From: Planctomycetota bacterium
GTDB lineage: Bacteria > Planctomycetota > UBA1135 > UBA2386
Reading direction: 5' to 3'
Assembly: GCA_947501605.1 (NCBI GenBank)
Contig: CANMWZ010000010.1
Location: 46,688 to 110,687, forward strand
Length of the DNA stretch: 64,000 bases
The position numbers were made by a program, and so were the translations under genes. Shown piece by piece: positions 25,149-44,670 of the stretch (positions are counted from its first letter, which is position 1; each line of letters starts with the position of its first letter). The notes beneath the pieces are model-generated. The model did no database searches, was not told the origin of the DNA, and was given only the letters and a program-made list of their open reading frames with translations.

Positions 25149-26234
25149 ATGAGCCAAAACGACAAGCAAGGTACGGGTGCGCCCGACACTCCCAGCAAGA
25201 ACCACGGCGTCCTCTACATCGGTATGGACCTCGGGACTTCGCGCACATCGGTCAGCGCGAGCAACGGCGTTCGTGAGACGGTCTACTCGGTCGTCGGCTA
25301 CCCGAAGGACGTCGTGAGCAAGAAGCTGCTCAAGAAGGACGTCCTGTTCGGCAAGGAAGCGATCGAACGTCGACTGTCGCTGAAGGTCTACAAGCCGCTC
25401 GAGAAGGGCGTGCTGAAGTACAGCGGCGCTGGCGGCATGACGGATCAGGAGAAGGACAACCTGAAGGCCGCTCAGGACCTGATCGGAGAAGCGATCCGCC
25501 TAGCCCGCCCGCGCAAGGACGAGTTGGTCTACTGCGTCATTGGTGCCCCGGCCGAGGCCTCGATGAAAAACAAGGAGGCGATCATCGAAGCCGCGCGCGC
25601 CCATGTCGACTCGGTGATGCTCTGCAGTGAACCCTTCTCCGTCGCCTACGGCCTCGACTGGCTGGAAGACGTGTTGGTGATCGACATCGGGGCCGGCACG
25701 ACCGACCTGTGCCGCATGCATGGCACGATGCCAGAGGACGCCGATCAGGTGATGTACGAGATTGCTGGTGACTCGGTCGATGCCGAGCTGTCGCGACTCA
25801 TCCGCGAGACGTGCCCGGGAGCCCAGTTCAGTGACGTCATGGTCAAGGACATCAAAGAGCGTTACTCGTTCTTGGGCGAGACCGGGGAGCGCGTGGTCGT
25901 CGAATTGCCAGTCAACGGCAAGCCGACGCCATTTGACCTGACGGATCAGATCCGCAAGGCATGTTCGGTACTGATCGATCCGATCGTCGAAGGCATCAGC
26001 AAGCTCGTTGCGACTTTCGATCCCGAGTTCCAGAGCCGGTTGAAGAACCGCGTCCTGCTAGCAGGCGGTGGTTCGATGATCAAGGGCTTGGACACCGCTA
26101 TCGAGAAGGCGATGCGCGAGCGCTTGGGCGGCGGCAAGGTCATCCGCATCGAGGAACCGATCTACGGTGGCTCCAATGGCGCGCTCAAGATCGCGCACGA
26201 CATGCCTGAGGAGTTCTGGGAGAAGCTGAAGTAG
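25149..26234 (+). CDS. mamK: MamK-like bacterial actin
   Basis: IGMDLGTS, SVVGYPKD, SEPFSVAYGLD, IDIGAGTTD, LAGGGS and C-terminal ALKIAHDMPEEFW match MamK-type motifs better than MreB motifs. Confidence 0.85.
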   Translation: MSQNDKQGTGAPDTPSKNHGVLYIGMDLGTSRTSVSASNGVRETVYSVVGYPKDVVSKKLLKKDVLFGKEAIERRLSLKVYKPLEKGVLKYSGAGGMTDQEKDNLKAAQDLIGEAIRLARPRKDELVYCVIGAPAEASMKNKEAIIEAARAHVDSVMLCSEPFSVAYGLDWLEDVLVIDIGAGTTDLCRMHGTMPEDADQVMYEIAGDSVDAELSRLIRETCPGAQFSDVMVKDIKERYSFLGETGERVVVELPVNGKPTPFDLTDQIRKACSVLIDPIVEGISKLVATFDPEFQSRLKNRVLLAGGGSMIKGLDTAIEKAMRERLGGGKVIRIEEPIYGGSNGALKIAHDMPEEFWEKLK

Positions 26235-26300
26235 CTCGCTTCGTCCTAGCCTGCTACAGAATGAAGGCGCGCGTGCCGGAGTCGCTCCGGGCGCCTTCTG

Positions 26301-27023
26301 TCATTCGAGCGCGAACTCGCGGCGCAGGATCGCCTGCAGCTCGAAGAAGTCGCGGATCTCCCACTGAGCCGTCGTGCGACCGTCTTCGGTCGCGTGCTTG
26401 CCGCTGCGGCGGATCCGCACCGTGTGCCAGCCCTCTTGGTTGCAGGGGTCGATGTCGTGCGTCGGGTTGTCGCCGACGTAGAGACACCGGCTCGGGTCGA
26501 GGCGCATGCGCTGGAGGATGCGGCGGTAGAGCTTGGGGTTCGCCTTGCTGAAGCCGATTTGATCGGTGAAGAAGACCGCCGACGGGGTCATGAACTCGAC
26601 GAGTTGCAGGCGCACGAGCTTTTCTGCCTGCTTGACGGTGATCCCGGCCGAGATGATGCCGCGGATCAACTGTGTGCCAGCCAGCCACTTGAGCACTTCG
26701 TAGACATCGTCGTGGACCTGCAGTTCGCGCCACTTGGTGTCGTGGTAGGCGACGACGCCGGCCGCAACGAGCACCGCCTTGTTCAGGCCCTGGCTGGCTT
26801 CTGCGGGAAGACGATCGACGACCTTGTCGAAATGGTTGCCGTAGTTGCTGGTGAACTCGGCGAGGACCTCTTCCAATTCGCGGAGCGCCGTCGTTCGGTC
26901 GGTGCGCAGTCCGGCGCGGATCATCGAATCGACGGCCGCTCGGCGAGCCTTGTCGGCGAACACGGTTGTCGAGAACAACGTGTCGTCGATATCGAAGAAG
27001 ATCGCGTCGAGGGGCTTGGTCAC
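26301..27023 (-). CDS. HAD-superfamily hydrolase (subfamily IA)
   Basis: DIDDTL (DxDxT), motif II ISAG, K in SKANP, VGDNPTHD. Confidence 0.9.
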   Translation of the reverse strand: MTKPLDAIFFDIDDTLFSTTVFADKARRAAVDSMIRAGLRTDRTTALRELEEVLAEFTSNYGNHFDKVVDRLPAEASQGLNKAVLVAAGVVAYHDTKWRELQVHDDVYEVLKWLAGTQLIRGIISAGITVKQAEKLVRLQLVEFMTPSAVFFTDQIGFSKANPKLYRRILQRMRLDPSRCLYVGDNPTHDIDPCNQEGWHTVRIRRSGKHATEDGRTTAQWEIRDFFELQAILRREFALE

Positions 27024-27106
27024 GGGCGCTCGCTAGGCCGGCGGCGACTGGAGGCGAACTCGCACCGAGGGCGGCGCTGCGGTCGTCCCGCAGCGCCAGG
27101 TCGAGA

Positions 27107-29668
27107 TCACTTGCCCTCGATATCGCGGATGTCCGTGATCCACGCGCGGACCATGACCATCAGACTGCGGTTCTCGTCGGCGACGCCTTCCTGCTTGAAG
27201 AAGAAGGACAGCAGCGGCAGCTGCGAGAGCAGCGGGATCTCCGCGCGGCGTTCGCGAGTGAGCACCTGACGCAGGCCACCGAGCAGGACCGTGCCGCCGT
27301 CCGGTACTCGCACCGTGGTCGCAAAGCTGGTGACGCGCAAGTTCGGCAACTGCAGCGTCACTGGCAGCGTCGAGCCGGCGAGCGACGTGGTGAACGTCGG
27401 GATCGGGCGGCTCAGTTCGGCGATGGTCGGGTTGAGGTTAAGGATGATGTACTTACGGTCCTGCTGGATCACCGGTCGCACGTCCAGAACGATGCCGTCC
27501 TGGATCACGTCGACCTTCGGGTCCGCGATGAACGAGGCCTGCGCGACCTCGACGTCGAAGTCACGGACATAGGCCGTCTGGTTGATCACCGCGACGTGGC
27601 CACGCTCCTTGTCGAGGACTGACAAGTATTGGCTATTGACGATCTCGACATCCTCCTGCTTCTCGACCGCGCGCAGGATCATCTGCAACTCCGTATCGCC
27701 CAGATAGGCCCAGCTTGCAGTGAATCCGCCATTGGGCGTCAGCGCTTGGCCAAGGCCTGAGGTGAACAGGTTCTCGGTCCGGCCGCGAACGTCGCCGTCG
27801 TTGCCGTCGTTGAAGAACGCACCTGAGGTCGGGTTGGCTGCCGGGTCGCCGGTGCCGCCGTTGTCGGTGCCACGCGACGCGTTGTCGTCGAGGCCATTGG
27901 TGACGTCATCAAGGGTCGCATTGGTCCCCTTGCTGCCGGCTCCGCCGAGGCCCCGGAAATCGACGCCGATCTCCTGCAGGAAGTTGCGCGTGATCGTCAG
28001 GAACTTGCTGTCAATCGTGACCACCGGCGTCGCCGAGCGGCGCATATCGGCGAGCACGCCCGCAACGAGCTTCTGGATCGTCGGGCTAGCCTTGACGATC
28101 AAGTAGCCGGTGTCTTCGGGCGTGATTCCCACACCCTCGCTGCCCCAGTAGGCGGGATCGGTAGCGTCTTGAACGTTGGTGACGAGGTCGGCGATCTCGA
28201 TGTAGGAGACCTTGTCGTCCCCTTCACCACCAGCGCGCGGCGAGTCATCCGTATCGCCGCTACCCGGGATGTCACGGATGCGAGGCGCGAGGAACTCGGT
28301 GCGCTTGAAGACGAGGTCCTTGACGTCGTAGACCTCGCTCTGAATCTGGCCAGACGCGTCGGACTTGTTGCCGATGACAACAACTCCATTCCGGACCGTC
28401 CAAGCAAGGTTCGTCGACTTCTGAACCATCAGGTTCAAGAAGTTCTCGAGCGTGACCGAGTTCACCAGCTCGATCTCCATCTTCAGGCTCTCGCCGTTGA
28501 TCACCTCGCGGCCGGCCGGAGTAATGATGATCGAGACGTTGGTGACCAACTGGAGGTTCTTGACGACCTCGGTGAACTCGCCCGTCTCGGCCGTGTAGGT
28601 CAGCTTGCCGACTGGCGCGATGCGGACTTGCTCCCAGAGAGCGGCGTCCTGCGGATCGATGCTCTGCTGTGAGCCGACGGTCCCGGCGCGGCGCTGAGCC
28701 CGCTCCCAGGTGTCGTTATCCATCGACAGCACCTTGGTGTAGGGGATCTTGAGCTCCTCGCGGCTCTCGAGCAAGGAGCGGATTTCCTTCGCCTTCTGCG
28801 AATAGTAATCCTCGTTCATCTGGTCGCGCGCGGCCTTGGTGGTGACGTGCACCATCTCTTGGGCGACGGCGCTGGTCGGATCCGCCTCGAGGGCCTTGAG
28901 TGCATACTCCTGCGCGTTGCGGAACTGGCGGCTCTCGAAGGCCACCTGAGCCTGCTGCAGGAAGAGATCGAGCCGAGCGCGGCGGCGCGCTTCCGTCTGG
29001 CGGCGCTCCTCAGCGAGGCGCTGGGCCAATTGGTCGTTGTATTGGCTCTGCGTGGCCCGCTTCTGCTCGGTCAGCTTTTGCTCCGCGTCACTGAGCAGGC
29101 CATCGACTTGCTGCGGCAGAGCTTGCCAGTCCACCTGGTCGCGAGTGCGAACGATGACCTGCGCGTGACTCAGTTCGTCGACGGCACCAGCGAAGTTCTG
29201 CTCCGCCAGCATTTCGCGAGCACGCTGCAGCTTCTCGGTCACGAGCGCGCGCGAGCGGTCTTCGGCGATGCGCTGCTGTTCTAGTTGCTCGGTGTGGAAA
29301 TCGATGGCGCCCCCGATCGGCACGCCGCGTTCGGCTTGCACCGCCGCGATCATGTTGCGGACGGCCTCGTTCTCAGGCTGGAGGTCCTTCGCCTTCAGCA
29401 ACTCATGCAGCGCTGCATCGAGTTTGCCATCGAGGCGGAGACGTTCGCTGACTTCCAGGTACTTGGCGACGAGAGCGGCGCGGCGCTCTTGATCGAGCGT
29501 GCGCGCACCTCCTTGCGGGTCCTGCGCAGCGGCGTTGGCTTCGCCCTGGTTCGGATTCGTCGGGTCCATGCCCGGTTCGGTGGTGGTATCGCTGGATGTC
29601 GAGCACGAAACACCAGCAAGGGCGGCGGTCAGAGATGCGGCGAGAAGGCGCGGATGTTCGAGGGCCAT
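27107..29668 (-). CDS. Secretin-family (GspD/PilQ-like) lipoprotein with a TPR N-terminus, paralog A
   Basis: Lipobox LAGVSC; C-terminal secretin motifs DGIVLDVRPVI, TTVRVPDGGTVLLGGL, IPLLSQLPLLSFFF. Confidence 0.85.
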   Translation of the reverse strand: MALEHPRLLAASLTAALAGVSCSTSSDTTTEPGMDPTNPNQGEANAAAQDPQGGARTLDQERRAALVAKYLEVSERLRLDGKLDAALHELLKAKDLQPENEAVRNMIAAVQAERGVPIGGAIDFHTEQLEQQRIAEDRSRALVTEKLQRAREMLAEQNFAGAVDELSHAQVIVRTRDQVDWQALPQQVDGLLSDAEQKLTEQKRATQSQYNDQLAQRLAEERRQTEARRRARLDLFLQQAQVAFESRQFRNAQEYALKALEADPTSAVAQEMVHVTTKAARDQMNEDYYSQKAKEIRSLLESREELKIPYTKVLSMDNDTWERAQRRAGTVGSQQSIDPQDAALWEQVRIAPVGKLTYTAETGEFTEVVKNLQLVTNVSIIITPAGREVINGESLKMEIELVNSVTLENFLNLMVQKSTNLAWTVRNGVVVIGNKSDASGQIQSEVYDVKDLVFKRTEFLAPRIRDIPGSGDTDDSPRAGGEGDDKVSYIEIADLVTNVQDATDPAYWGSEGVGITPEDTGYLIVKASPTIQKLVAGVLADMRRSATPVVTIDSKFLTITRNFLQEIGVDFRGLGGAGSKGTNATLDDVTNGLDDNASRGTDNGGTGDPAANPTSGAFFNDGNDGDVRGRTENLFTSGLGQALTPNGGFTASWAYLGDTELQMILRAVEKQEDVEIVNSQYLSVLDKERGHVAVINQTAYVRDFDVEVAQASFIADPKVDVIQDGIVLDVRPVIQQDRKYIILNLNPTIAELSRPIPTFTTSLAGSTLPVTLQLPNLRVTSFATTVRVPDGGTVLLGGLRQVLTRERRAEIPLLSQLPLLSFFFKQEGVADENRSLMVMVRAWITDIRDIEGK

Positions 29669-30124
29669 CGGTTCACGCTCTGGAACTTGTGGGGTGCGAG
29701 CACCCACAAGGGTTTGGGACGATTCTCCGAACCGACGATTCGCGAGCGAGCGTGCGCGAGGGGTTGCTACGCGGCGGTCGTGATGCGGCGGGGGAGGGGC
29801 TTAGGGACAACAACGTCGCGACTGCTGCAGCAGAACGCCACGTCGAAGTCGGCGAAAGCTAGCCACGCCTGCGGGCTCGTGCCAGCGGATTCTGCGTCCA
29901 TCCTGCTGGGATCTTCTTCGATTTGCGCGGGGCCGAGCACTGCGGGAGGCGATCGACGCCCGCCGGTGCGGCGGGCGCGGCGCCCACCGTTCTGTGCTTA
30001 GGCCTTGGTGCTCTCGCGAAGATCGAGATCGAGCACTCGTGAAACAGCGCGACCCTGCTGCGGGGTTGCCGCAGCAGGGTCGCAGGTGGACTCGCCCAGC
30101 GAGTCCTTGGGCACGCTCGCCGGA

Positions 30125-30691
30125 CTACTTCTTTCCTGGAGCCTGGCCGAGGCCGCCGCCGAAGTTGATCTCGCCGAATCCAGCGGCCTTCACCAAGTCC
30201 GCGGTCTTCGCCGCATCATCATAGTACGTGCCCGGGTGTGGTTCGATGACCACCGGCATCGGCTTCTTCTGGCCGGGCTTCTCTTTGTCATCCTGCCAAG
30301 TGTCGCGGTTGTTGTAGATCCGCTTCAATTGGTTCAGCAGGTCGTCGCTGTTCGTCACCAACGTTGGGCCCACCATCCATTTGATGGTGTGACCCTGAAG
30401 GGCGAAGCGGTAGGGACGCTGGGTCTGGCTGTTGACCAAACCAGGGCCGCCGCCATTGGGAAACCGCTGGGTGCCCCTGGAGTCCTCGTAGACGCCGAGC
30501 GATAGCTGTTCCTGTGGCTCCACCTTGGTTGCTTGGCTGCCCTTGTCCTTGGGCAGGTAGGCTGGCAGCTTGGCCTCGAGCACTTTGAATTCGATGCAGA
30601 TGAAGAAGATGATCATCAGGAAGACGCAGTCGATCATGGGCGTCATGTCCGGCTTGACTTCTTCCTGGGCTGCTGCGAGTAGATCGCTCAT
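30125..30691 (-). CDS. exbD: ExbD/TolR family protein
   Basis: DMTPMIDCVFLMIIFF TM segment with the conserved Asp. Confidence 0.85.
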   Translation of the reverse strand: MSDLLAAAQEEVKPDMTPMIDCVFLMIIFFICIEFKVLEAKLPAYLPKDKGSQATKVEPQEQLSLGVYEDSRGTQRFPNGGGPGLVNSQTQRPYRFALQGHTIKWMVGPTLVTNSDDLLNQLKRIYNNRDTWQDDKEKPGQKKPMPVVIEPHPGTYYDDAAKTADLVKAAGFGEINFGGGLGQAPGKK

Positions 30692-30712
30692 CGTCGGTTC
30701 CTTGCTGGTTGT

Positions 30713-31234
30713 CTAGTTCTTGCCCTTGAGCAGCGCCTCTTCCTTGTCCTTTTCGGACATGGCGAGCTCGACCTTCCAGAAGGCAGCTTCGGGCTGGCTG
30801 CACTGCTTCATCACTTCGCCGACGAAGTGCCACTCGGTCCACTTGTCAGCGCGCAGGAGGATCGGATCGTCGACCAGTTCTACGTCGCGTCCGCCGAGAT
30901 TCTCAGTCTTCGTCTTCACGTTGCCGGTCTGCTTGATCAGCTTCAGCATTCGTAGGATGCCGGAGTAATCGCTGCCGTGGACCGCAGGGTCGTACTGCAT
31001 CTTCCCCTTGTAGTAGACCGCGCCCGTTTGCAGCAGGTTGATGACGGGTCGGTTCTCGGGCGGCGAGTCATCGGCTTGCTGATACTGTGCCTTGGGGAGA
31101 ATCAGGTCTTCGAGGTTGGTCTGACTCAGGTCGATGATCAGCACGAAGAAAATCATCAGCAGGAACACGCAGTCGATCATCGGAGTCATGTCCATCTCCT
31201 GCGTCTGCTGCGCTTCTTTCTTGAGGTCGGTCAT
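30713..31234 (-). CDS. exbD: ExbD/TolR family protein (second)
   Basis: DMTPMIDCVFLLMIFF; ILLRADK..WHFVGEVMKQC periplasmic motif. Confidence 0.9.
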   Translation of the reverse strand: MTDLKKEAQQTQEMDMTPMIDCVFLLMIFFVLIIDLSQTNLEDLILPKAQYQQADDSPPENRPVINLLQTGAVYYKGKMQYDPAVHGSDYSGILRMLKLIKQTGNVKTKTENLGGRDVELVDDPILLRADKWTEWHFVGEVMKQCSQPEAAFWKVELAMSEKDKEEALLKGKN

Positions 31235-31296
31235 TGCTCAGCTCCTTGCCCGCGAGACGGGACTAGGTCGAACGTGCACGGGGACAAGTGGTTCGA

Positions 31297-32025
31297 TCAC
31301 TGCCCCTTGCGGAAGCGCTCGAACATGTCCTCGGCGATGGCATTGACCTCGGTGCAGATGCGGACGACGCGGTTTCGGAGGACGAAGAAGCACACGCCGA
31401 CTGGCATCGCGACCGTAAGGCCGAAGATCGTCGTGATGAGTGCCATCTTGATGCCCTTGGCCAAGATCGCAGGGCTCACGGATCCACCGGCAGAGGCGAT
31501 CGTTCCGAAGGTCACGAACATGCCCGTCACGGTGCCGAACAATCCCATCATCGGTGCCGTCGCGGACATGAGCGACAGCCAGCCGACCTTTTGGAACAGC
31601 TTGGTGGATTCTTCCGCCTCCATCTCGCGGACGGTGGCCTGAATCGTCTCGAACGGGTGGCCAAGCTTGCTGAGGCCCGCGCCGACACACCGCGTCAGGT
31701 AGAACTTTTCGTTCTCACAGAGCTCGGTCGCTTCCTGAAAGTTCTCTTCGTCGAACAGCGCGCCCAGCTCGTCAATCAGGTCGGGCGGCGCAAGCTTCTC
31801 GCGCTTCAGGGAGACGAAGTTCTCGATGATTAGCGCCAGGGAGATGACCGACATGGCGACGATGATGTAGCCGATGAGGCCAGCGTTTTCGTACGCGAAC
31901 ATGTCCGCGAGCGCGCCGGTTTGCTCGGCGGCGGCGGGCTTCGCATCCTGCGCGGAAGCGAGGCTGGTCACGAACAACGGCGTGGCAAGGGCGAGGAATC
32001 GAGCGATGCTAGATGGGAGGTTCAT
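31297..32025 (-). CDS. exbB: MotA/TolQ/ExbB proton channel protein
   Basis: APMMGLFGTVTGM and ALITTIFGLTVAMP TM motifs; signal-like N-terminus; start MNLPSS. Confidence 0.92.
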   Translation of the reverse strand: MNLPSSIARFLALATPLFVTSLASAQDAKPAAAEQTGALADMFAYENAGLIGYIIVAMSVISLALIIENFVSLKREKLAPPDLIDELGALFDEENFQEATELCENEKFYLTRCVGAGLSKLGHPFETIQATVREMEAEESTKLFQKVGWLSLMSATAPMMGLFGTVTGMFVTFGTIASAGGSVSPAILAKGIKMALITTIFGLTVAMPVGVCFFVLRNRVVRICTEVNAIAEDMFERFRKGQ

Positions 32026-32179
32026 GGAGCAGCGACTCCGTGTGCAGGAGTAGGGCAGGTAGCAGGGAGAGGGGGTTAGATCGAGCCGCAGAGTTTGCGC
32101 GGTCGCGCGACCGCGGAAAAGACCCTGAGACAGATGGAAACGAAAAAGGGGTGGGCACGCGGCATGCGGGCCGTCGATG

Positions 32180-33316
32180 TCACTTGGCGAGCTCGGTCTT
32201 CGCCGGACCAACCCAACGGCTGGTGGAGTAGCTACGAATCACGAGGTTGAAGTAGGCGGTTGCGCGATTCTTCCAGTCCTGGCTGGCGCGTTCGCCCAGC
32301 GCTGTAACCACGCGACCGAGGTAGTAGTTGGCTTTCGCAGCCGTGTCGCCGGCGCCGGTGTCGAGCACGCAGGCTTCGGCGAGCGCGATTTCGGCCGTGC
32401 GCAGCCCAGCGGCGTCGTTGGCGCCCACTGCAACGAGGAACGTGGCTTCACCGAGGCCGGCCTTGCCGGCGGCGGCGAGCGATGCGTCCGTGTTCTGGGC
32501 TAGGGTCCGGAAGTAATCCGAGGCGCGGACATAGTCCTTCTCGAAGACAAGCGATTCGCCTTCGCCGACCTTCGAGTTGACCTTGATCGCGACCATTTCC
32601 GCGCTTTGGCCACCAGCGGCGGCGAGAGCGGTGTCCGCAGTGCCGCCGGCGCTCTGGAAGGAACTGCGGGCGTCGGCTGCTCGGCCTTGTTCGAGCAGAC
32701 TCAGGGCCAATTCGTACTTCGCGCGCGCATTCCAGATCGCTCCCCAGCCATCGCTACCAGCGCGATTGTCGAGGTCCTTCAGTGTCGCTTCGGCGTCCGC
32801 ATGCACTTGGCCGAGTCGCAGTGCACGGCCGAGTAGATACATCCCTTCGGGGACGCGCCAGTGGTCGGGGAACTCGCTGAGCCACGCCCGCATGGCACCC
32901 GACGCGTTCGCCGCGGCGGCGGGATCGCCGGCGGCTGCCATGACCGCGGCCCGGCCTTGCAGCAGGCGGGCTTCGGCCTTGACCACGGGACGGTCGCTGG
33001 CAGTTGCCGCCTCGCCGAATTGCTGTCTGGCCAATTCGTACTCGTTGCGAGCCATGGCGGCGAGGCCGCTCGTGAAGCTCTCAGGGACTCCGCCCCACTG
33101 GATGTCGACAATCTGGTGCGGGGGGATCTCGACTTCCTCTTTGCTGCGCGTCACCTTGACCGAGGTCAGCGTGAAGACTGTCACCGTCACGCCGCGAAGG
33201 CTCGAGCCGTCGACCTTGACAATGGTGTCTGACGATTCCTGCGCCGGCAACCAGGCTGTGCACAGCGACAGACAGAGAACGAACAAGGAGCGCATGGCGG
33301 GTGTGCGGGCGTTCAC
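32180..33316 (-). CDS. Exported TPR-like protein
   Basis: Signal peptide (SLFVLCLSLCTAWLPAQ), small beta domain, then helical repeats ending YSTSRWVGPAK; start GTG 33316 (GTGA coupling) or ATG 33295. Confidence 0.75.
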   Translation of the reverse strand: MNARTPAMRSLFVLCLSLCTAWLPAQESSDTIVKVDGSSLRGVTVTVFTLTSVKVTRSKEEVEIPPHQIVDIQWGGVPESFTSGLAAMARNEYELARQQFGEAATASDRPVVKAEARLLQGRAAVMAAAGDPAAAANASGAMRAWLSEFPDHWRVPEGMYLLGRALRLGQVHADAEATLKDLDNRAGSDGWGAIWNARAKYELALSLLEQGRAADARSSFQSAGGTADTALAAAGGQSAEMVAIKVNSKVGEGESLVFEKDYVRASDYFRTLAQNTDASLAAAGKAGLGEATFLVAVGANDAAGLRTAEIALAEACVLDTGAGDTAAKANYYLGRVVTALGERASQDWKNRATAYFNLVIRSYSTSRWVGPAKTELAK

Positions 33317-36195
33317 GGGCGGTTCAGGTCGAAGTAGGTGAAGAGGTTCATGCCGTCCTGGCCGAGCGCCTTGAGGCCGGCGAACTTGTCGAGTGCTCCC
33401 GTCGTGCGGTAGATCGAAGCCGCGTAGCCCTTGTAGGTGCTGTCCTGCTCGCCAGCCTGTTTGGCGTACCAGTAGCATTCCCATTGGAAGCGATACCAGT
33501 CGATGCTGTACTTCTGGACTGCGGGGCGCTGAGCCCAGGTCCGGTACTCGGAGTAGTACTTGTCGTAGGCTTCCTTGTAGCGGCCGAGGCCAGGCTCCTT
33601 CACCGGCTTGCCACGGTTATTGAGGTAGAACCAGCCGCCAAGGGCCTTGCAGACCAGGCGCTTCAGCTCGTACTGGTTGGGGTTGGCCTTCTCGGCTGCG
33701 AGCAACATGTCGAGTGCCTGCTGAAACTGGCGTTGCTCGAGCAGCGCTTCACCGATTTTCGGCCGAATCGTGAGGTCGATGACCTCCTTGGTCTTCGCCT
33801 CTGCTTCAGTTCCGTACAGTTGCAGCGCCTTCTGCGCGACCTCGTCGACTTTCTTCCAGTCGCCGAGTTTCTCGAAGGCGTTCATCGTGTTGACCAGGAT
33901 GCCGAGCTGCGGCTTGCCCGACGAACGGATGTAGTCAACGCCCAGGTTGCACAGGCGCGTGCGCATCTGCGTGATGTCGTTGCGCAGCTTCTCAATGCCC
34001 GCCTTGTCCTTGTCGGCACTGACGGCAGCGTCGAGTTCTTTGTCCAGATTGGCCGTGTGCGTCAGGTAGGCACCGAAGATGACGCTTGCTAGCTTGCTTG
34101 CGCGCTGCTCATCGAGGTCCTTGATCTGCAAGTACGAGGCTTCGGCCTTGTCGAGTTCGCCCAGGTCTGCGTGCATCCGGCCAAGAGCGTCGAGCGCCTG
34201 TGCGATCGTCGCTTCTTTCGACTTGCCGTGGTTGGCGACAAAGGCCTGCATCAGCGCGATTGCCGCCGGATACTTTGCAGGGTCGCGTTGCAGCTTCAGG
34301 GTCGCATCGCCATAGGCCTGCGCGTAGGCGATTGCTGCCTCGGTGTAATCCGTGCGCCGGATGGCACTCTCGCGGACTTGTGCCTTGTCGGCTCTCTTGG
34401 GGTCGAGAACGGCTTCCTTGGAAGCGAGCCAAGAGCGGTAGTCGGCGATGGACTGCGTGGCCTCCGCGATCTTGCCGCCAAAGAACTGCATCCGGATCAG
34501 GTTGGCGCGCGCGAGCTCGTACTGCAGGAACTCCTTCGGTACCTGAGCAAAGGCGTCGACCGCTTCCGTCCACTTGCTCTCGGCCATGCGGTCATTGCCG
34601 TTCTTCCAGTGGACCTTGCCGGCGCCGGCCGTCGAGTAGGCCAACACGGTCGGCTCGGCCATGGCAAACAGCGGCTGCAGAGCAGGGTCGTTCTTGCTGA
34701 TCGACTTGAGCTGCGTGACGGTGCGATCCAAGCGGTCTGCCATGTCGCTGGCGAGCGGCGATTCGGTGCCGTCCTCTCGCTTGCCGAAGCGCTTCAGTCC
34801 TTGCTCGAAGGCAATCAGCGACTCGAGGAATCGATCCGTCGCAGCGAAGATCTTCCCGAGGAGGTCATAGGCTTCGAGGCCGATTGCTCTTTGCTCTTCT
34901 GGTGACATCGTCGCGAGCGCGCGGCGGAGACCCTTGATGCCCTCCTCGTAGTTCTTGTTCTGATATTCGCCCTTGGCGATTTCGAACAGGAGCGAGCCCG
35001 AAACCAAGTTGCGCTGGCGATCGAGAATCTGACGCAGCACCGCCTTGGCCTTGATGCCGACGTAATCGCTCGGATGCTTGTCGTTGATCTTCTGCGCCAT
35101 GGTCAGCGCCTGTTGCACCTTGGCAGCATCTCCCGACTCGGCAAGGAACCGGCATTCGGCCAGGAAGGTAAGGTGACCAAAGCGCGGATCGCAGATCTCG
35201 AGCGGATCGAGCCCCTTCTCACCGTTCTTGGCGAGGTTGTCGCGGAACGAAAGGAACATCTCCGTCGCCGCCGCCGTGTCGCCCTGCTCGAACAGGAGTT
35301 CGCCGAGATGCGCGTAGACCTCCTGCATCATGTCAAAGAGGAAGGCCAGCGTGTCGCCGCTGAGCTCGTTGTCCTCGGCATTGAGTGTGACGCCGATCTG
35401 TTGGATGGTTGCGCTATAGCTGGCGATTGCATCGGCAGTGTTGCCCGCAACCTCACGGCACTGAGCGATCTCGAAGAGCCCGCGCAGGCCGAGTGCGGTT
35501 TCCTCCCCGTACTCAAGCACCATCTCTTCGAGTTCATTGATTGCTCGTCCCGTCTGAACTTCCCGGTCCTGCTTGATGGCGCGACCATGTTCGCGCAGCA
35601 GCACGCCTTTGCGCATCCAGGCAAGACCGTACTCGAGCTTCGTCTGCGGATCCTTGGCTGCACCCTCTTGCAGCGCCTGCATGACCTTCACGCACGATTC
35701 GCCGCCGAGTGCGAACACGTCCTTCGCTTCCTGTTCCAGTTCGGCCACGCGAGTTGGCGATTCCGTGCGCGCAACATCGAGTTCTTCGTTGAGGAACTGT
35801 CCAAATTCCTGAGCTGCTTCTGCGAGCGTCGCGCGAGCGTCGCGCTGGACCGTTGCGTCGCTGCTGCGCTCGAGCAGTTCTTTGCTCTGCAGCAGAGCCT
35901 TCTTGTAGTCGCTGCGCTGCTCGATGCGGTTCTGCTTGATGCGCGCGCCGAACAGCGAGACCTCCACTCGCAACTGCAGGACGCGGTCCTGGTCGCTAGC
36001 CGTCTTGAATTCACTCTCGAGTCGCGCGAGCTCGGTCTCTGCGACCGACACGAGTCCGAGATCGCGCGCGAGGCCGCGCACAAAGGTCATCTCCCGGTCG
36101 AGCTTGGCCGGTCCCTGAGCGACAGCAATCGTCGTCTGGAACGACATCGCCAAGAGGCCAAGGGCGACAGGAGACAGGAACGCTCGGGCGCGCAT
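33313..36195 (-). CDS. Large exported TPR/alpha-solenoid protein (~960 aa)
   Basis: Signal peptide ending AVAQ; predicted all-helical, TPR-like repeats throughout. Confidence 0.75.
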   Translation of the reverse strand: MRARAFLSPVALGLLAMSFQTTIAVAQGPAKLDREMTFVRGLARDLGLVSVAETELARLESEFKTASDQDRVLQLRVEVSLFGARIKQNRIEQRSDYKKALLQSKELLERSSDATVQRDARATLAEAAQEFGQFLNEELDVARTESPTRVAELEQEAKDVFALGGESCVKVMQALQEGAAKDPQTKLEYGLAWMRKGVLLREHGRAIKQDREVQTGRAINELEEMVLEYGEETALGLRGLFEIAQCREVAGNTADAIASYSATIQQIGVTLNAEDNELSGDTLAFLFDMMQEVYAHLGELLFEQGDTAAATEMFLSFRDNLAKNGEKGLDPLEICDPRFGHLTFLAECRFLAESGDAAKVQQALTMAQKINDKHPSDYVGIKAKAVLRQILDRQRNLVSGSLLFEIAKGEYQNKNYEEGIKGLRRALATMSPEEQRAIGLEAYDLLGKIFAATDRFLESLIAFEQGLKRFGKREDGTESPLASDMADRLDRTVTQLKSISKNDPALQPLFAMAEPTVLAYSTAGAGKVHWKNGNDRMAESKWTEAVDAFAQVPKEFLQYELARANLIRMQFFGGKIAEATQSIADYRSWLASKEAVLDPKRADKAQVRESAIRRTDYTEAAIAYAQAYGDATLKLQRDPAKYPAAIALMQAFVANHGKSKEATIAQALDALGRMHADLGELDKAEASYLQIKDLDEQRASKLASVIFGAYLTHTANLDKELDAAVSADKDKAGIEKLRNDITQMRTRLCNLGVDYIRSSGKPQLGILVNTMNAFEKLGDWKKVDEVAQKALQLYGTEAEAKTKEVIDLTIRPKIGEALLEQRQFQQALDMLLAAEKANPNQYELKRLVCKALGGWFYLNNRGKPVKEPGLGRYKEAYDKYYSEYRTWAQRPAVQKYSIDWYRFQWECYWYAKQAGEQDSTYKGYAASIYRTTGALDKFAGLKALGQDGMNLFTYFDLNRP

Positions 36196-36427
36196 AGGGC
36201 GCCGGATGGTGCTGCCGATCACGAGGCTGACTCCAGAATGCAGAAGAGGCACGATTCGGATTGCGCCCGAGGGTGCATGCGGGCGCCACCGACTCGGGCA
36301 AAGACCAGCGCGCGGAGGGGTCTCACCACGCGTTGGACAAGGAACGCTGAACATAGCGATCGGTTCAGTGGAGCCAATCGCCAAGGGCGCGAGCGCTGAG
36401 ACAGCAGCACGCGCCCCGCTAGGGGTG

Positions 36428-39103
36428 TTACTTGCTCGCGGCGACGCCGGCGTCGGGCAGGGTCATTGAGTCGGGCTGCAGCTCTTCCATGATCACGATC
36501 TTGGCATTGATCAGGATGAGGATCTTGCGGTTCTGCATCGACTGGCCTTTGCGACTGAACAAGAACGAAATGCCGGGCAGGTCCTTGAGGATCGGCACAC
36601 CGGACACCAAGTTCTGCCGTTCGACCAGGCGCATGCCGCCGAGCATCATGGTCGCACCATCGGGCAGCGTGACCGTGGTCCGAACTCGTTGCAGGGAGAC
36701 TTCCGGCAGCTGGATCGAAATCGGCTGACCGACGCCCAGTGTGGTCGTGAAGTTCGGGATCGGCAGCTGCAGCGTCATCACCGTCGGGCGCAGCTCCATG
36801 GTGATGAACTTCAGGTCGCTGTCGACCACGGGCCGAACGTCCAGCGTCACGCCGTCATAGACGGTTCCGATCACTGGGTTCGCGACGCCGGCGGCCTGCG
36901 CGATCTCGACCTCGAAGTCCTTGATGTAGCTGATCTCATTGAGCACGTGCATGCTGGCGCGCGTGTTGTTGTAGATCAGCAGGCGCGGTGCCTCGATCTG
37001 CTCGCTGCGCTCCTGCTTGCTGACCGCGCGCAACACGGCCTCGACCTCGGTGTCGTCGAGGAAGGCATACTGCAGCGAGAGACCACCGAGGTTGTTCATG
37101 CCGCCGTCGCCGCCCAGGGTGCGGTCAAACAGATTCTCGGCGCGGGCCATGTAGTCGCCGTCGTTGCCGTCATCGAAGAAGATGCCGGGTTCCGTGCCTG
37201 TGCCGAGGAGTCCCGGCGTTGCGGCGTTCTGCTGCTGCGATGGCCCGAAGTCGTCAAAGCTCGCATTGGGCCGAGTCTCGAGACCACGGCCGGGGAGCCC
37301 CTGCGACGACTGATCGCCGAGGCCGCGAAGGTCGACACCGACGTCTTCGAGGAAGTTGTCTTCGACCTTGAGGAAGCGCGATTCGACATCGATCTGGATG
37401 CCGACATTTCGGCGCAGATCGCGCAGCAGCTTCAGCACCGAATCATGGGTGTCCTTGTCGGCCCGCACCATGAGCATGCCGGCCTGGAAGTTCATCGTGA
37501 ACGGGCTGCCGTCCCAGCGACCTGTGGCGACGGCTTCTTTCAGGATGTCCTGGAGGCGACTGTCGTTGACAACCGCTGGCGCCGGCTCTTCGTCGACTTC
37601 GGGGAACAGTGGCGTGTCATCGTCCGGGGCCTTGAGCTTGAGGTCCGGGCCTGGCTTGCTGGTGAAGCCGGTAACGAGGTCACTGACGTTGTAGCGATCG
37701 TAGTAAAGCGTGCCGATCGCGTTCTCTGGGGTGACCAGTTGCACCAATCCGTGGTTGATACGGTAGGCGACGCCCGTCTGGGCCTGGATGACCTTCAGTG
37801 CCTCACCTACCGAGCGGCGCGACAGACGGAAGTCGGTCAGAGTGGTCGCGGTCGCATCCATGCCGGCGACATCCGGACCGACCACAAACGTCACCCCTGT
37901 CAGGTTGCCGTAGTAGGTCGCCCAGTCCTGGACCGAGGCGCTCGGGAAGTTGTGCTCCAACGAGGTCTCCGCCAGCTTCCGTTCGATGGCGCGGTTCTCC
38001 GGGCTGTCGAGCTCCGCCGGGGTTGCGAAGGCTTGCTGCTTGCGCTGCGAGACTTCCGCCCATCGGATCGGATCGAACACGACCGTCTCGGTCTGCGGCA
38101 TGTTCGACTGCTGGTTCTCCAACACCGTCGCGTTCCACTCCTGGCGCCACTGCTCGCGGTTGAGCTCCATGGCGCTGTTGTGGCGCGCGCGGTCCGCAAC
38201 GTCGCGCAGTTGCGTCGCTGCGGTGTTGGTCGGGTCGATCTGCAGCGCTTGATCGATGCGCTCGACGGAGCCGTCATACTGCCCCGCGAGGAACTGATTG
38301 TTTGCATCTTCGAGCAGGCGCTCGACCCGCGCCTCGCGCGACTCCTGCTGCTGCTTGGCGATGCGATCCAGTTCGGCCTTGGAGGCGGCCTCCTGGTTCT
38401 GCAGGCTCTGCTTGTCGGATTCCAGCTTCCGCTTCGAAGCGGCTTCGAACTCAGCCTCGGCGCGCCGGAGCAGGGGGTCGTTGGGTTGGAAGTGCGGCGA
38501 CAGCCGAAGGGTCGCGAGCGACCGCTGGTAGTTCTCGATTGCACGGCCGTAGGCGCCCTGCTGCATGTGGGCGTTGGCTTGCTCGAGTTCACGCTCGACC
38601 AGGGTCCGGTCGCGTTCCGCGGCGATGCGGTTGCGCAGGATCTCGTCGGCGAAGCGGCCACCGACCGTAGCTACTCGATCGCCCAGCACCTCGTTGCAGC
38701 GCCGGAGGATCTCGCGGGCTTCCGGGTTCTGGTTGTCGAGCTCCAAGGCAAAGGCTGCCTCGTTGCGCGCATCGGCAAACAGACGAGCCTCCATGGAGCG
38801 TCGCGCATTCTGCAGCGCGCCTTGCAGGAGGGCTTGCGTGCTCGGCCGGCCTTGCGGGTCTTGCGCGTCGCCTTGCGGGTTGTTGCGGTCGACGGCAGCG
38901 AGGCCAATCGCAGTCGCTGCCGTCTGCGTGCTCGCTGATGCCGTCTCTGCCTCGCTCATCACTTGGCCCTGGTTCGTCAGGGAACCTGGGTTTCCAGATC
39001 CTGAGTAACCAGATCCGGAACTCATGGTGCCAGAACATGCAGCGAGTGCGAGCAGCGAGGACGCACAGAGGCCGCGAAGGCGCAGGGTCTCGACCTTGAT
39101 CAT
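36428..39103 (-). CDS. Secretin-family lipoprotein with a TPR N-terminus, paralog B
   Basis: Lipobox LALAAC; DGVTLDVRPVV, TTVTLPDGATMMLGGM, GVPILKDLPGISFLF; start MIKVETL. Confidence 0.85.
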   Translation of the reverse strand: MIKVETLRLRGLCASSLLALAACSGTMSSGSGYSGSGNPGSLTNQGQVMSEAETASASTQTAATAIGLAAVDRNNPQGDAQDPQGRPSTQALLQGALQNARRSMEARLFADARNEAAFALELDNQNPEAREILRRCNEVLGDRVATVGGRFADEILRNRIAAERDRTLVERELEQANAHMQQGAYGRAIENYQRSLATLRLSPHFQPNDPLLRRAEAEFEAASKRKLESDKQSLQNQEAASKAELDRIAKQQQESREARVERLLEDANNQFLAGQYDGSVERIDQALQIDPTNTAATQLRDVADRARHNSAMELNREQWRQEWNATVLENQQSNMPQTETVVFDPIRWAEVSQRKQQAFATPAELDSPENRAIERKLAETSLEHNFPSASVQDWATYYGNLTGVTFVVGPDVAGMDATATTLTDFRLSRRSVGEALKVIQAQTGVAYRINHGLVQLVTPENAIGTLYYDRYNVSDLVTGFTSKPGPDLKLKAPDDDTPLFPEVDEEPAPAVVNDSRLQDILKEAVATGRWDGSPFTMNFQAGMLMVRADKDTHDSVLKLLRDLRRNVGIQIDVESRFLKVEDNFLEDVGVDLRGLGDQSSQGLPGRGLETRPNASFDDFGPSQQQNAATPGLLGTGTEPGIFFDDGNDGDYMARAENLFDRTLGGDGGMNNLGGLSLQYAFLDDTEVEAVLRAVSKQERSEQIEAPRLLIYNNTRASMHVLNEISYIKDFEVEIAQAAGVANPVIGTVYDGVTLDVRPVVDSDLKFITMELRPTVMTLQLPIPNFTTTLGVGQPISIQLPEVSLQRVRTTVTLPDGATMMLGGMRLVERQNLVSGVPILKDLPGISFLFSRKGQSMQNRKILILINAKIVIMEELQPDSMTLPDAGVAASK

Positions 39104-39448
39104 GGTATGCCTGCCCAATGAGGGCGTAGCAGAGAGGGAGTAGCGGTCCGAGGGGAGGGACAAGCGGATCACCTTGCGTCGGCTGTTGCCGCAGGGGCTC
39201 GCGGCGAAGGCCGAATGCGAGGTGAGTCTCAACCAAGACGACGGGAAAGAGCACAACTCGGCAGGGCTCGTCGATGCGTCTGGGCAACCGTGACGTCAGC
39301 GAGTCGCACGGTGTTCAGGCCTCGGAACGGGGTCTGCGAAGCAGTCTCCGTGCGCAAGAACCACAAGGTTCCCACGCAGGGACCGGCGGACGGTAGCGGC
39401 GTGCATGGGCACGGTCAAGAACGGCCAACACGCGAAACCAACAGGATT

Positions 39449-40312
39449 TCAGGCACCGGTGTCAGGCGAGCGACGGGGGTCTTCCGGCCGCCCGAGCATG
39501 CGGTTCACGCGTTTGATATCGATCCAGGTTTCGGCCTTGCGCGAGGGGTCGCGCAGCAAGAACGCCGGGTGCCAGGTCACGACCAGTGGAATGCCCTCGT
39601 AGCGGAGCTCGCGGCCGCGCAACTCGCGCATCGGTGCCTCGGTCTTGAGCAGGTTGTGGGCCGCGATCCGACCCAGGGCCACGATCACCTTCGGCTGCAG
39701 CAGCGCCACTTGTTGGCGCAGATAGGGTAGGCAGGCGGCGACTTCCTCGGGTTCCGGGTCGCGATTGCCGGGTGGCCGGCACTTGTTGACGTTGGCGATG
39801 TAGACCTCCTCGCGACGCAGGCCCATGGCGCCGTCGAGAATGCGGTCGAGCAGCTGGCCGGCTGGGCCAACGAAGGGCCGGCCGGTCTGGTCCTCAACCG
39901 CTCCGGGGGCCTCGCCAACAAACATCACGTCGGGTTGGCGGGCACCCTCGCCGAACACGACGGAACGGCGGCTCTCGCACAGCTTGCACAGCTTGCACGC
40001 GAGTGCCTCGGTGCGAAGCACGTTCAGGCGATCGGCGACCGCGTCGGTTGCTGTCGCTGCCGCCGGTGCAGGCGCCGGTGCACGCACTGGCGGCGCGCTC
40101 GGTTCGATCCCCGGTTCCGATTGTGGCGGTGAGCCCGATTGTGGCGGTGAGGTTGTCACCGACGTGACAGGGCCCGGGTCCTTCGGCTCCGACTGTGGCA
40201 CAGCCAGCACCAGCTTCGGCACTGCGAGCAAGAGATCGGCGCCGTAGCCTGAGAGTGCGTTCTGCAGGGTGTTCTGCAGGTGGAGTCGCAGGCGGTCTTG
40301 GCTTTCGGTCAC
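39449..40312 (-). CDS. Uracil-DNA glycosylase family 4 (Fe-S)
   Basis: CKLCKLC, VGEAPG, GRPFVGPAG, KCRPPGNRDP, TWHPAFLLR. Confidence 0.95.
   Translation of the reverse strand: MTESQDRLRLHLQNTLQNALSGYGADLLLAVPKLVLAVPQSEPKDPGPVTSVTTSPPQSGSPPQSEPGIEPSAPPVRAPAPAPAAATATDAVADRLNVLRTEALACKLCKLCESRRSVVFGEGARQPDVMFVGEAPGAVEDQTGRPFVGPAGQLLDRILDGAMGLRREEVYIANVNKCRPPGNRDPEPEEVAACLPYLRQQVALLQPKVIVALGRIAAHNLLKTEAPMRELRGRELRYEGIPLVVTWHPAFLLRDPSRKAETWIDIKRVNRMLGRPEDPRRSPDTGA
40117..40151. repeat. 18-nt tandem duplication in the UDG N-terminal linker
   Basis: CCGATTGTGGCGGTGAG repeated twice (encodes SPPQSG-SPPQSE). Confidence 0.7.
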
Positions 40313-41481
40313 GGCGCCACCTTCGGGCCGCGTCGACTGGCAGGGGCCATGGCTACGGTTGCCGCATCCTCGCCGAGCAGCGGGAAGATGCCGTAGCTGT
40401 GGGCCAGGCTCGGGCGATCTCCGAGGGCGATCACGGAGTGCCAGGCGCAGTCGTCGAAGCCCTGCGACGGCAGCAGGATCGAGTCGCCCTCCTCGACGAC
40501 GTAGACCGCGCCGAGCGCCGACAGGTGTTTGGCGAAGCCCAGATCGCGGTTGAGAAGCTGCCAGATCTGGCGATCGCCGTCGTGGTCGAGTCGATCGAGG
40601 CCGGCGCGTTCGTTCGTCGCGAGGCCAAGGCGCACGACGAGCCGCGCGAGCCGGCGCTTACTGAGCGTCAACCAAGTGGTGCGCCCTTGCAGTTGCGTGT
40701 AGCAGACGCCGAGTTGGCCCGGCTCGGCGTCGTGGTGGAACACGGCGCCACCGTCCGGCGCGTTGTTGTAGAGAATGCGTTCGGACAGGTGGTAGGGGCG
40801 CCCCAGTAACGTGCGCAACAGGCCCTGCAACTCGCCGCAGCCATCGATGGCCGCGCACTCTGGAAAGGCGCTGCGGGCGAGCGCATCGACGGCCAGCGTG
40901 GTGCGTTCGGTAGCCCTCATCCAGCCGTCTGCCGCGCCGTCGCCGCTGCTGTGGCGGATTCGCAGCGAACGATCGCTTTCGTCGTTGGCGATCCAGCTCG
41001 CTCGGGCCCACAGGTCCGCGGCGCCAGCGAAGGTCCCCGTTGCGGCGTCGAAGAACACGGTCTCGACGTCGCGAGGGTCCAGGTGCTCGACAGTGCTCCC
41101 CGAGTAGGCGAACTCGTGCTGGTCGCGGAGTCGGCGTTCGAGTTCGTCGAGGAAATCGCGACCTTTGCGCAGGCGTTCGAACATCTGCAGCGATGCTTCG
41201 ATCGCGCCGGCGACCGAGGGCAAGATCGAGGCAACGATGCCAGGCAAGAACACGGCTTCGCTTGCATCCCAGCGATAGCGCGCGGCCGCGCGGTCCAGCG
41301 GATCGCGTCGCAGCGCGAGCACGAAACCGAAGTCGACGCCGCGCCGGCGCAAGGGCCACGCCGTCCTTTCCCGGCGCCGCCAACTCGCCACGAGCGCCTC
41401 GCTGCCCGGGGGCAGGATGCGCGCGGTAGCGGCTAGGGCCACTGCACGGTTGCTGGCACGGCGGTCCGTTTTGGTGGGCAC
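40309..41481 (-). CDS. Hypothetical protein with a possible cupin/2OG-Fe(II)-type HxD...H site
   Basis: VFHHDAEPG ... GDSILLPS..AWHSV; stop overlaps UDG start; start uncertain. Confidence 0.6.
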   Translation of the reverse strand: MPTKTDRRASNRAVALAATARILPPGSEALVASWRRRERTAWPLRRRGVDFGFVLALRRDPLDRAAARYRWDASEAVFLPGIVASILPSVAGAIEASLQMFERLRKGRDFLDELERRLRDQHEFAYSGSTVEHLDPRDVETVFFDAATGTFAGAADLWARASWIANDESDRSLRIRHSSGDGAADGWMRATERTTLAVDALARSAFPECAAIDGCGELQGLLRTLLGRPYHLSERILYNNAPDGGAVFHHDAEPGQLGVCYTQLQGRTTWLTLSKRRLARLVVRLGLATNERAGLDRLDHDGDRQIWQLLNRDLGFAKHLSALGAVYVVEEGDSILLPSQGFDDCAWHSVIALGDRPSLAHSYGIFPLLGEDAATVAMAPASRRGPKVAP

Positions 41482-41650
41482 CCGCGCACGCTACCGCGAA
41501 GCCGGGAGCGGCGTCACGCATGCAGTCGCCGCGATCGCTCACGGCGGCGACTTCCACGCGGTGGACGAAAGGCCCGTCCTGTGCAACAGTCAGTCGCTCG
41601 CCTTCCGGACCACGCTAGTGACTTCCACGAACGACGCCGCCGTTGTGCGG

Positions 41651-44506: not shown

Positions 44507-44533
44507 ATCGCGACATGAGTTCGTTTTCGCAGC

Positions 44534-44593: not shown

Positions 44594-44670
44594 GTTTCCG
44601 CAGGCGGTTCGTCCCAGCGCCATTGCTCATGGTGCAGGAGGGTGCTTTGGCACGTCGGTCAGGCGATTTG

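Follow-up and report, generated by a model that had tools for sequence, protein, structure and literature searches.

In a 64,000-nt stretch of DNA from a Planctomycetota bacterium (contig CANMWZ010000010.1 of assembly GCA_947501605.1; the whole stretch is called the window here), seven genes on the minus strand at 27107-39103 encode, read along that strand, secretin B (SecB), a 961-aa tetratricopeptide repeat (TPR) protein (TPR1), a 371-aa TPR protein (TPR2), an ExbB, two ExbD proteins (ExbD1 and ExbD2) and secretin A (SecA). A first-pass annotation of this DNA had proposed such a row of seven co-oriented genes, and the strand, the coordinates and the Pfam assignments obtained here all agree with it. 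The parts belong to known families, and related modules have come from Akkermansia genetics and from a computational survey of 2025; what appears to be new is the position of a motor cassette inside a pair of anciently duplicated TPR-secretins, conserved across the phylum. Literature searches found no paper describing twin secretins with an ExbB/ExbD motor in Planctomycetes. The likely starts of SecB, TPR1, TPR2, ExbB and SecA given below were read off the translations.

SecB (36428-39103, 891 aa, ATG at 39103, open frame 36428-39256) and SecA (27107-29668, 853 aa, open frame 27107-29707) are predicted to be lipoproteins; each has a TPR/coiled-coil region at its N-terminus and a secretin fold of the PilQ/BfpB type. 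Both have a signal peptide and a candidate lipobox cysteine, Cys23 in SecB and Cys22 in SecA, and in a crude search limited to rows with the N-terminus covered, a suitable cysteine was found in 65 of 76 SecA and 41 of 49 SecB orthologues. Both belong to the secretin superfamily by the Pfam Secretin model (PF00263), which gives 85.7 bits for SecB and 82.9 bits for SecA at a cut-off of 27.5. The layout of SecB is a signal peptide, an N-terminal TPR/helical region, N-domains and a C-terminal secretin domain, with additional weak Pfam TPR matches. For SecA, an AlphaFold2 model based on 56 homologues (predicted local distance difference test, pLDDT, 77.1) has a helical TPR/coiled-coil region at residues 55-306, alpha/beta N-domains at 339-546 and a beta-rich C-terminal half or barrel at 549-845. 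Foldseek matched this model with probability 1.0 to BfpB (E value 4.6e-24), Vibrio competence PilQ (3.9e-20), PulD, GspD, InvG, RcpA and phage pIV, and its N-terminal part to TPR proteins including PilF. Likewise, when solved structures are compared with a profile of the secretin family, PilQ leads the secretins, and TPR repeats match close to the beginning of the profile. The first-pass annotation had allowed that the C-terminal halves might fail to model as secretin barrels; since the SecA model matches known secretins, the prediction speaks against that failure.

On the other hand, neither protein reaches the cut-off of a narrower secretin family. The NCBIfam scores of SecB and SecA are 107 and 97 bits for MshL (cut-off 250), 70.4 and 68.0 bits for PilQ (TIGR02515, 284), and 68.5 and 65.4 bits for GspD (TIGR02517, 351), and no ATPase gene is nearby. 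As for a pilus context, there is no T2SSE ATPase on the contig and the PilM locus of the genome is on contig 1; pilins were not searched. The Akkermansia family Amuc_1098_fam (NF042912, cut-off 750) matches SecB at 105.4 bits over residues 246-870 and model positions 141-796 of 805, and SecA at 56.5 bits over the C-terminal part only, which is remote sequence similarity and not membership.

Between the secretins lies the motor. The ExbB/TolQ-like proton-channel subunit (31297-32025, 242 aa, open frame 31297-32211) has an N-terminal signal peptide and matches Pfam MotA_ExbB (PF01618) at 82.4 bits against a cut-off of 22.9. Its nearest NCBIfam model is TolQ with 66 bits (cut-off 221), and the ExbB equivalog gives 51 bits (206). 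ExbD1 (30713-31234, 173 aa) and the second, distinct ExbD/TolR-like protein ExbD2 (30125-30691, 188 aa) match Pfam ExbD (PF02472) at 56.4 and 52.8 bits against 25.4, and the nearest NCBIfam model of ExbD1 is TolR (28 bits against 127). In 15 ExbB orthologues the invariant columns of the last two helices include G164, T165, T199 and P208, and the transmembrane Asp21 is invariant in 23 of 23 ExbD1 and 20 of 20 ExbD2 orthologues. From work in E. coli we take these Gly, Thr, Pro and Asp positions to be proton-path residues. Judged by its conserved residues, the motor looks functional.

TPR1 (33313-36198, 961 aa, open frame 33313-36384) is an exported TPR/solenoid protein with a cleavable signal peptide and Pfam matches to TPR_2, TPR_14 and TPR_12, and its orthologues occupy the same slot in relatives. 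TPR2 (32180-33295, 371 aa, open frame 32180-33484) is exported through an ordinary signal peptide. Its start is either the ATG at 33295 or the GTG at 33316, which shares letters with the stop codon of TPR1 (GTGA). The coupling of the two genes read by the first-pass annotation is therefore there in the sequence as far as the GTG goes, but the ATG seven codons on is an equally possible start. TPR2 has no Pfam match of its own; its orthologue in L111, a locus from another family, has clear, multiple TPR matches. The AlphaFold2 model of TPR2 (pLDDT 91.5, predicted template-modelling score 0.88) shows a five-strand beta domain at 23-66 followed by a TPR solenoid at 72-370. Its fold matches are LGN/Pins TPR, PilW, PilF, NlpI and the Campylobacter motor scaffold 9hmf_K, the last at rank 13 and as a generic TPR fold match. 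The NCBIfam YbgF/CpoB model gives 36 bits (cut-off 90). In the ESM Atlas the nearest entries of TPR1 and TPR2 are TPR clusters, mostly from Planctomycetota, and these searches showed no link to Verrucomicrobiota; searches of PDB sequences with both proteins returned only designed TPR proteins or chance matches. A complex prediction of the periplasmic parts of ExbD1 and ExbD2 with TPR2 scored 0.00, which counts neither for nor against binding.

Linkage of motor and secretins across Planctomycetota

The same-order set consists of 20 loci of 20 kb each, from 20 of 40 relatives, chosen for two matches on one contig. The row SecB-TPR1-(TPR2)-ExbB-ExbD-ExbD-SecA was found in 17 of them, and in the other three SecB adjoins SecA with no motor within 20 kb. 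The close set holds the best 80 of 427 SecA relatives in species-representative genomes, nearly all of them metagenome-assembled genomes of Planctomycetota, and 66 of the 80 loci are informative, with at least 3.9 kb upstream of SecA. ExbB-ExbD1-ExbD2 lies directly upstream of SecA in 64 of the 66, the exceptions being L058 (SecB-TPR1-TPR2-SecA) and L110 (SecB-SecA). Some records are shared between the two sets and so the counts are not independent. With this recurrence in both sets, the arrangement is far from chance.

The wider picture comes from a phylum sample of 301 genomes with at least 85% completeness. Of these, 238 have a match to the SecA profile at E<=1e-40, in most cases two matches. 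Places were compared for the best 150 secretin and the best 150 ExbB matches, and in 69 of the 81 genomes listed in both, the best ExbB lies at most 8 kb from a twin-family secretin (median 4.6 kb); in 10 of the 81, ExbB and secretin are on different contigs of fragmented assemblies. A further set from other families contains 20 loci in 18 genomes, 14 of them picked for two secretins within 14.3 kb and 6 around dispersed or tandem secretins. ExbB and/or ExbD is located between the secretins in 12 of the 14 paired loci, and neither is in the other two. In the rearranged loci L128 and L130, TPR-ExbB-ExbD genes lie 5-6 kb from a SecB-type secretin, which is harder to explain by frozen order alone. 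The conservation in relatives on which the first-pass annotation had staked its reading thus extends well beyond the order, and because such strong linkage survives some rearrangement, it favours a functional tie between the motor and the secretins.

The motor is nevertheless frequent rather than obligatory for twin secretins. As the ExbB profile is not discriminating (297 of the 301 genomes match at E<=1e-30), only score ranges were compared. The best ExbB E values are 1e-61 to 1e-67 for motor-less clusters, about 1e-75 to 1e-107 for complete clusters and 1e-33 to 1e-70 in genomes without the twins. The scores of the motor-less clusters resemble those of the twin-less genomes, and so the orthologous motor is probably missing in these lineages and not moved elsewhere. 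L058 keeps both secretins and both TPR genes, and in L110 and L025-L027 SecB stands beside SecA; these motor-less natural variants would be useful comparisons for the contribution of the motor.

The twins were also placed among the other secretins of the genome. Six Secretin matches were found genome-wide, four of 130-149 bits on other contigs and the twins at 88-91 bits. The careful tree has 44 rows, with 19 of 43 SecA rows left out, and is rooted on the four canonical copies, whose branches are long, so the root is uncertain. In this tree the twin family is one clade apart from the four canonical secretins (bootstrap and Shimodaira-Hasegawa approximate likelihood-ratio test, SH-aLRT, 100/99). 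All 24 SecA rows form one clade (100/99), and 11 of 13 SecB rows form another (88/96). A quick tree of 63 rows agrees, with SH-aLRT values of 98 for the SecA clade and 95 for the SecB clade. As far as the sequences tell, the SecA/SecB pair is the product of an old duplication. Tandem copies from L129 (three) and L130 (two) make up a separate clade (99/96) with duplications of its own. We account for this by paralogous copies of the twin-type secretin having arisen more than once, and the repeated duplication hints that two or more different subunits may be wanted. The tandem copies, which belong to two other families, are at L129:7481-14834 and L130:8235-13650.

Neighbouring genes and transcription

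Within the cluster, ExbD2 and SecA are separated by a gap of 456 nt (29669-30124). At 83 nt downstream of SecA lies a minus-strand gene for a HAD-family hydrolase (26301-27023, 240 aa, Pfam HAD), whose nearest NCBIfam model is TIGR02253 (147 bits, cut-off 170). It is a possible eighth member of the unit. A HAD gene follows SecA in 77 of the 80 close loci, the other three ending at a contig edge, and also in L125, where SecA stands alone; it may be co-transcribed with SecA and functionally tied to it. The upstream flank carries, on the minus strand, a family-4 uracil-DNA glycosylase (UDG) gene and a 390-aa open reading frame (40309-41481) that has no Pfam or NCBIfam match and is kept upstream of UDG in close relatives. 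Divergent from this frame is the plus-strand gene of a 1029-aa TPR protein (41417-44506).

Two further kinds of gene accompany the secretins in other families. The first is a gene of about 650 aa for a protein of the sulfatase/alkaline-phosphatase family with a C-terminal TPR region, located between ExbD2 and SecA (L111:12300-14264; L115:12164-14173; L116:9086-11563; L117:6431-8401). Pfam Sulfatase gives 121.8 bits in L111 and 91.5 bits in L117. By tblastn no orthologue was found in the present genome, where the best match has 28% identity over 211 residues. The second is a PilM-like Amuc_1101_fam gene, which together with two unknown genes lies upstream of SecB-type secretins in L128 and L129 (201 and 191 bits, cut-off 650). 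No close orthologue of the L128 protein came to light in this genome, only the canonical PilM (contig 1, 27% identity) and, on contig 22, a weak match of the Amuc_1101 type.

A promoter and terminator scan of 26000-41600 gave no promoter-like sites and only weak terminator-like sites, all inside genes, and is uninformative on operon structure. Public runs containing this stretch come from lake water and freshwater sediment; four of them, from three studies, are labelled as metatranscriptomes and hold 54-92% of the sampled words. The contigs of the four runs, which show neither strand, ends nor level, cover 27-29 of 30 bins between 25500 and 41500 at no less than 99% identity. One run has individual contigs running across the HAD-SecA, ExbD2-ExbD1-ExbB, TPR2-TPR1 and TPR1-SecB junctions. 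A contig of run X12 (28844-30153) spans the ExbD2-SecA gap, but it has only 29 letters on the ExbD2 side and was not counted as bridging. The contigs of run X10 end at 39373 and leave the UDG bin uncovered; these are contig data, hence no transcript start is readable from them. Over the flank at 41500-61000, depth in two runs swings between zero and 165, a strong unevenness of the kind expected for RNA. Two runs cover this flank evenly, which weighs on the other side, as DNA carry-over is possible there. We have moderate confidence that the cluster genes are transcribed in nature. Given a secretin family as widespread as 238 of 301 genomes and the presence in lake metatranscriptomes, the cluster is likely an active, ecologically relevant machine.

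Two side observations belong to the same runs. The peak depth of the RNA libraries (up to 165, X10) is at 55000-58500, comes partly from related organisms at 95-99% identity, and is accompanied by several contig joints that skip 0.1-3.3 kb. Also, a contig of run X14 has 2 bases fewer at 32045, 20 nt upstream of the ExbB ATG, which is probably a strain variant.

Comparison with known systems

Secretins are known as the pores of ATPase-driven systems, such as type II and type III secretion, type IV pili and phage export, and TonB, TolA or Glt proteins are the known intermediaries of ExbB/ExbD motors. The first-pass annotation had recognised no GspE/PilB ATPase, pilin, TonB or TonB receptor in the window. 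For ATPase, TonB and receptor this holds, as none of the genome-wide T2SSE, TonB_C and Plug matches is on the contig of the cluster; pilins were not searched. There are 11 T2SSE matches genome-wide. Three of the four canonical secretins have a T2SSE ATPase gene no more than about 8.5 kb away (contigs 6, 1 and 52), and the canonical PilM adjoins the secretin on contig 1. The scan for partner ATPases that the first-pass annotation had proposed therefore gives a divided answer: none is on the contig of the cluster, but several of the 11 elsewhere have no neighbouring secretin.

The genome has three other motors. Contig 6 carries a canonical TonB-ExbD-ExbB-ExbB-receptor locus and the only TonB_C matches (Plug matches are on contigs 30 and 6 only), contig 32 has a MotA/MotB-plug pair, and contig 7 (L133:4239-13357) has a second TonB-less cassette. 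In the latter, genes for a 1034-aa TPR protein (BamD/YfiO-like match), ExbB and ExbD are followed by one for a 1120-aa protein with PD40 and squalene-cyclase-like/toroid matches and by a beta-lactamase-family gene. The motor of the cluster is therefore the fourth of its family in the genome, a dedicated one without a TonB-like gene of its own. A kinship of TPR1 with the 1034-aa protein was considered and rejected, BLASTP giving no significant similarity (best E 0.054).

Like the Ton and Tol-Pal systems, the cluster has a channel of the MotA/ExbB/TolQ family and ExbD/TolR partners with a conserved transmembrane Asp. Unlike them, it lacks TonB or TolA, a TonB-dependent receptor, TolB and Pal: no TolA, TolB or Pal domain was found by Pfam in the seven proteins, and the canonical Ton locus is elsewhere. 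Type IV pili offer a likeness on the outer-membrane side. SecA and SecB are closest to secretins of the PilQ, BfpB and MshL type, and TPR2 and the N-terminal regions of SecA and SecB resemble the TPR pilotins PilF and PilW (compare also Tgl). The secretins of the cluster, however, carry their TPR region within the same protein; a separate PilM-secretin-ATPase locus exists on contig 1, and no pilin, PilB/PilT or PilC gene is nearby (pilins were not searched).

A closer parallel in part is found in Akkermansia, whose MUL1 and MUL2 loci are described as needed for the accumulation of mucin inside the cell (PMC13174399, PMC12418764, bioRxiv 10.1101/2024.03.27.586211). According to the same sources and bioRxiv 10.1101/2025.02.20.639370, MUL1 and MUL2 mediate mucin transport and processing, mul1A (Amuc_0544) is a mucin transport gene, and MUL2 has PilM and pilin-like proteins beside a 'secretion system channel protein'. 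MUL2 corresponds to Amuc_1099-1102 (PilM-like and pilin-like) with the adjacent secretin Amuc_1098, and MUL1 includes mul1A. Both organisms belong to the Planctomycetes-Verrucomicrobia-Chlamydiae (PVC) superphylum, SecB resembles Amuc_1098_fam, and the Amuc_1101-type PilM genes of relatives stand upstream of SecB-type secretins. The differences are that Akkermansia has two separate loci, whereas here the motor is nested between the secretins with no PilM-like gene adjacent, and that the SecB and PilM-like scores are far under the family cut-offs (750 and 650).

The motor itself has a counterpart in a PVC cassette of the form TPR, tolQ-like, two heterologous tolR-like and a vWA transducer, which is described from Planctomycetes and Verrucomicrobia with its function unknown, and in whose description secretins are not mentioned (Williams-Jones et al. 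2025, Mol Biol Evol msaf138, PMC12204202). The cluster shares with this cassette a TPR gene, one tolQ-like and two different tolR-like genes in a row. As described there, the last gene of the cassette encodes a vWA protein of the inner membrane that carries an SHLS-type helix, but the seven proteins have no vWA Pfam match and SecA comes directly after ExbD2; moreover, the cluster has two TPR genes and flanking secretins.

Finally, the first-pass annotation had pointed to the AglRQS motor of Myxococcus gliding. AglR/AglQ/AglS with GltC/D/E are described as one TolQ-like and two TolR-like proteins with periplasmic TPR proteins (PMC3169522), so the motor stoichiometry and the TPR content agree with the cluster, as does the presence of outer-membrane proteins. 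The outer-membrane parts there are, by that description, OmpA- or autotransporter-like barrels and not secretins, and the TonB-like GltG/J is absent here; no TonB_C or OmpA-like Pfam match was found in the seven proteins. With no Glt-type component found, the likeness stands as an analogy only. Two other analogies are similarly limited. The TPR scaffold of the Campylobacter flagellar motor (PDB 9hmf) holds stators and is a precedent for TPR proteins positioning 5:2 motors, and the GldL/GldM motor of type IX secretion is a proton-driven motor for secretion across the outer membrane.

Proposed coupling of motor and secretins, and the alternatives

The explanation we lean towards, with confidence a little short of even, is that the seven genes encode a single envelope machine whose motor acts on the secretins. 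ExbB5-ExbD1-ExbD2 would form a 5:2 inner-membrane motor with an ExbD1/ExbD2 heterodimer. TPR1 and TPR2 would be periplasmic scaffolds linking the motor to the secretins, echoing the Campylobacter stator scaffold, and the long TPR/coiled-coil arms of the outer-membrane SecA and SecB could reach toward them. Proton flow would then lead to opening of, or transport through, the secretin pore. The cargo may be a large polymer taken into the periplasm; this step is the least firmly held, with export as the alternative, and uptake is favoured by analogy with the MUL loci of Akkermansia, which are reported as necessary for importing mucin. That the cluster is the first secretin transport system run by a 5:2 ExbB/ExbD motor in place of a cytoplasmic ATPase, with the two paralogous TPR-secretins as the outer-membrane gate through which planctomycetes take up whole polymers, and that Akkermansia MUL is its split version, is a stronger claim that we regard as unlikely.

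Several observations weigh against a single machine, and most of them fit instead with two neighbouring systems, an alternative that we consider somewhat unlikely. The motor would then be an autonomous cassette of the PVC type with a remote transducer, and the secretins would work in a PilM/N/O (MUL2-like) system, perhaps driven by an ATPase elsewhere, and the nesting would stem from co-regulation or from a gene order that has been frozen. In PVC bacteria the TPR-tolQ-tolR-tolR cassette has been described with no secretin (PMC12204202). Conversely, secretins are kept without the motor in L058, L110, L025-L027, L116 and L117, and no motor was found within 20 kb in L125-L127 and L129, that is, in 4 of the 6 dispersed or tandem loci. 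In G047 and G109, 2 of the 81 listed genomes, the parts are 2.7-6.4 Mb apart on one contig, and in one family all parts are dispersed. The secretin family itself is not universal in the phylum, as 63 of the 301 genomes lack it, including all 16 of one family with near-complete genomes. The UDG and HAD flanks are conserved in most loci; they are unrelated genes, so part of the synteny is simply frozen and the gene order of the region is conservative as such. SecB-type secretins stand downstream of a PilM-like gene in L128 and L129. In the present genome, no secretin adjoins several T2SSE ATPase genes, which are on contigs 8, 20, 18 and 17, and so the twins may have a distant ATPase partner. The cluster also has no TonB/TolA-like force transducer. 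An orphan TonB is found on contig 6 (L134:6248-7093, plus strand), with a 282-aa open frame and a membrane helix with a Ser...His pattern, between a family-2 glycosyltransferase and a methyltransferase gene and away from any ExbB/ExbD; its use by the motor is conceivable.

Against two separate systems speak the position of the motor beside a twin-family secretin in most genomes, including the rearranged L128 and L130, and the nearness of ExbB to a secretin in 69 of the 81 listed genomes across the phylum. It is SecA, and not a gene for a vWA/SHLS-type transducer, that follows the motor, and Akkermansia reportedly needs both kinds of locus for the same process, according to the MUL sources cited above.

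Polymer export or surface assembly, in which the motor supplies periplasmic energy for an exopolysaccharide, a holdfast or a fibre, seems quite improbable to us. The logic of TPR plus pore fits, as synthase-dependent polysaccharide export uses TPR-porin pairs, and to our knowledge secretins are export pores in all well-studied systems. The sulfatase/alkaline-phosphatase gene with its TPR tail in the clusters of other families and the phosphatase-type HAD gene after SecA (77 of 80 loci, the rest at a contig edge) point the same way. But the sulfatase gene is absent from this genome, and the cluster has no glycosyltransferase, synthase or ATPase gene, nor a recognised pilin, although pilins were not searched. 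The sole genetics on related loci, as described in the MUL sources, points to import.

A role like that of Tol-Pal in envelope maintenance or division, in which a TolQ/TolR-like motor and a CpoB-like TPR2 would tether the outer membrane or constrict it, with the lipoprotein secretins as outer-membrane anchors, is very doubtful. The nearest NCBIfam models of the three proteins are TolQ (66 bits), TolR (28) and YbgF/CpoB (36), and planctomycetes are described as dividing without FtsZ (PMC11131199). These scores are far under the cut-offs of 221, 127 and 90, the cluster is without TolA, TolB and Pal, the twin secretins are missing in 63 of the 301 sampled genomes, and the contig-7 cassette with its PD40-containing arm is a better candidate for such a role. 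A surface-motility machine of the Agl-Glt type, also raised by the first-pass annotation, has the one TolQ-like, two TolR-like and periplasmic TPR proteins in its favour but is hardly probable at all, since no TonB-like GltG/J, OmpA-like GltA/B, GltH-type barrel or cytoplasmic partner was recognised in the cluster, and secretins are not part of Glt as described in PMC3169522, where PilQ appears only as an outer-membrane marker.

If the one-machine reading holds, with the motor acting on the secretins, a very large outer-membrane pore would be energised in a new manner that involves neither an ATPase nor TonB. According to PMC11131199, which cites work on crateriform structures, the mechanism by which certain Planctomycetota take in polysaccharides is unknown, and the cluster would provide gene candidates for this import. 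It would also give a mechanistic frame for the mucin-uptake loci of Akkermansia.

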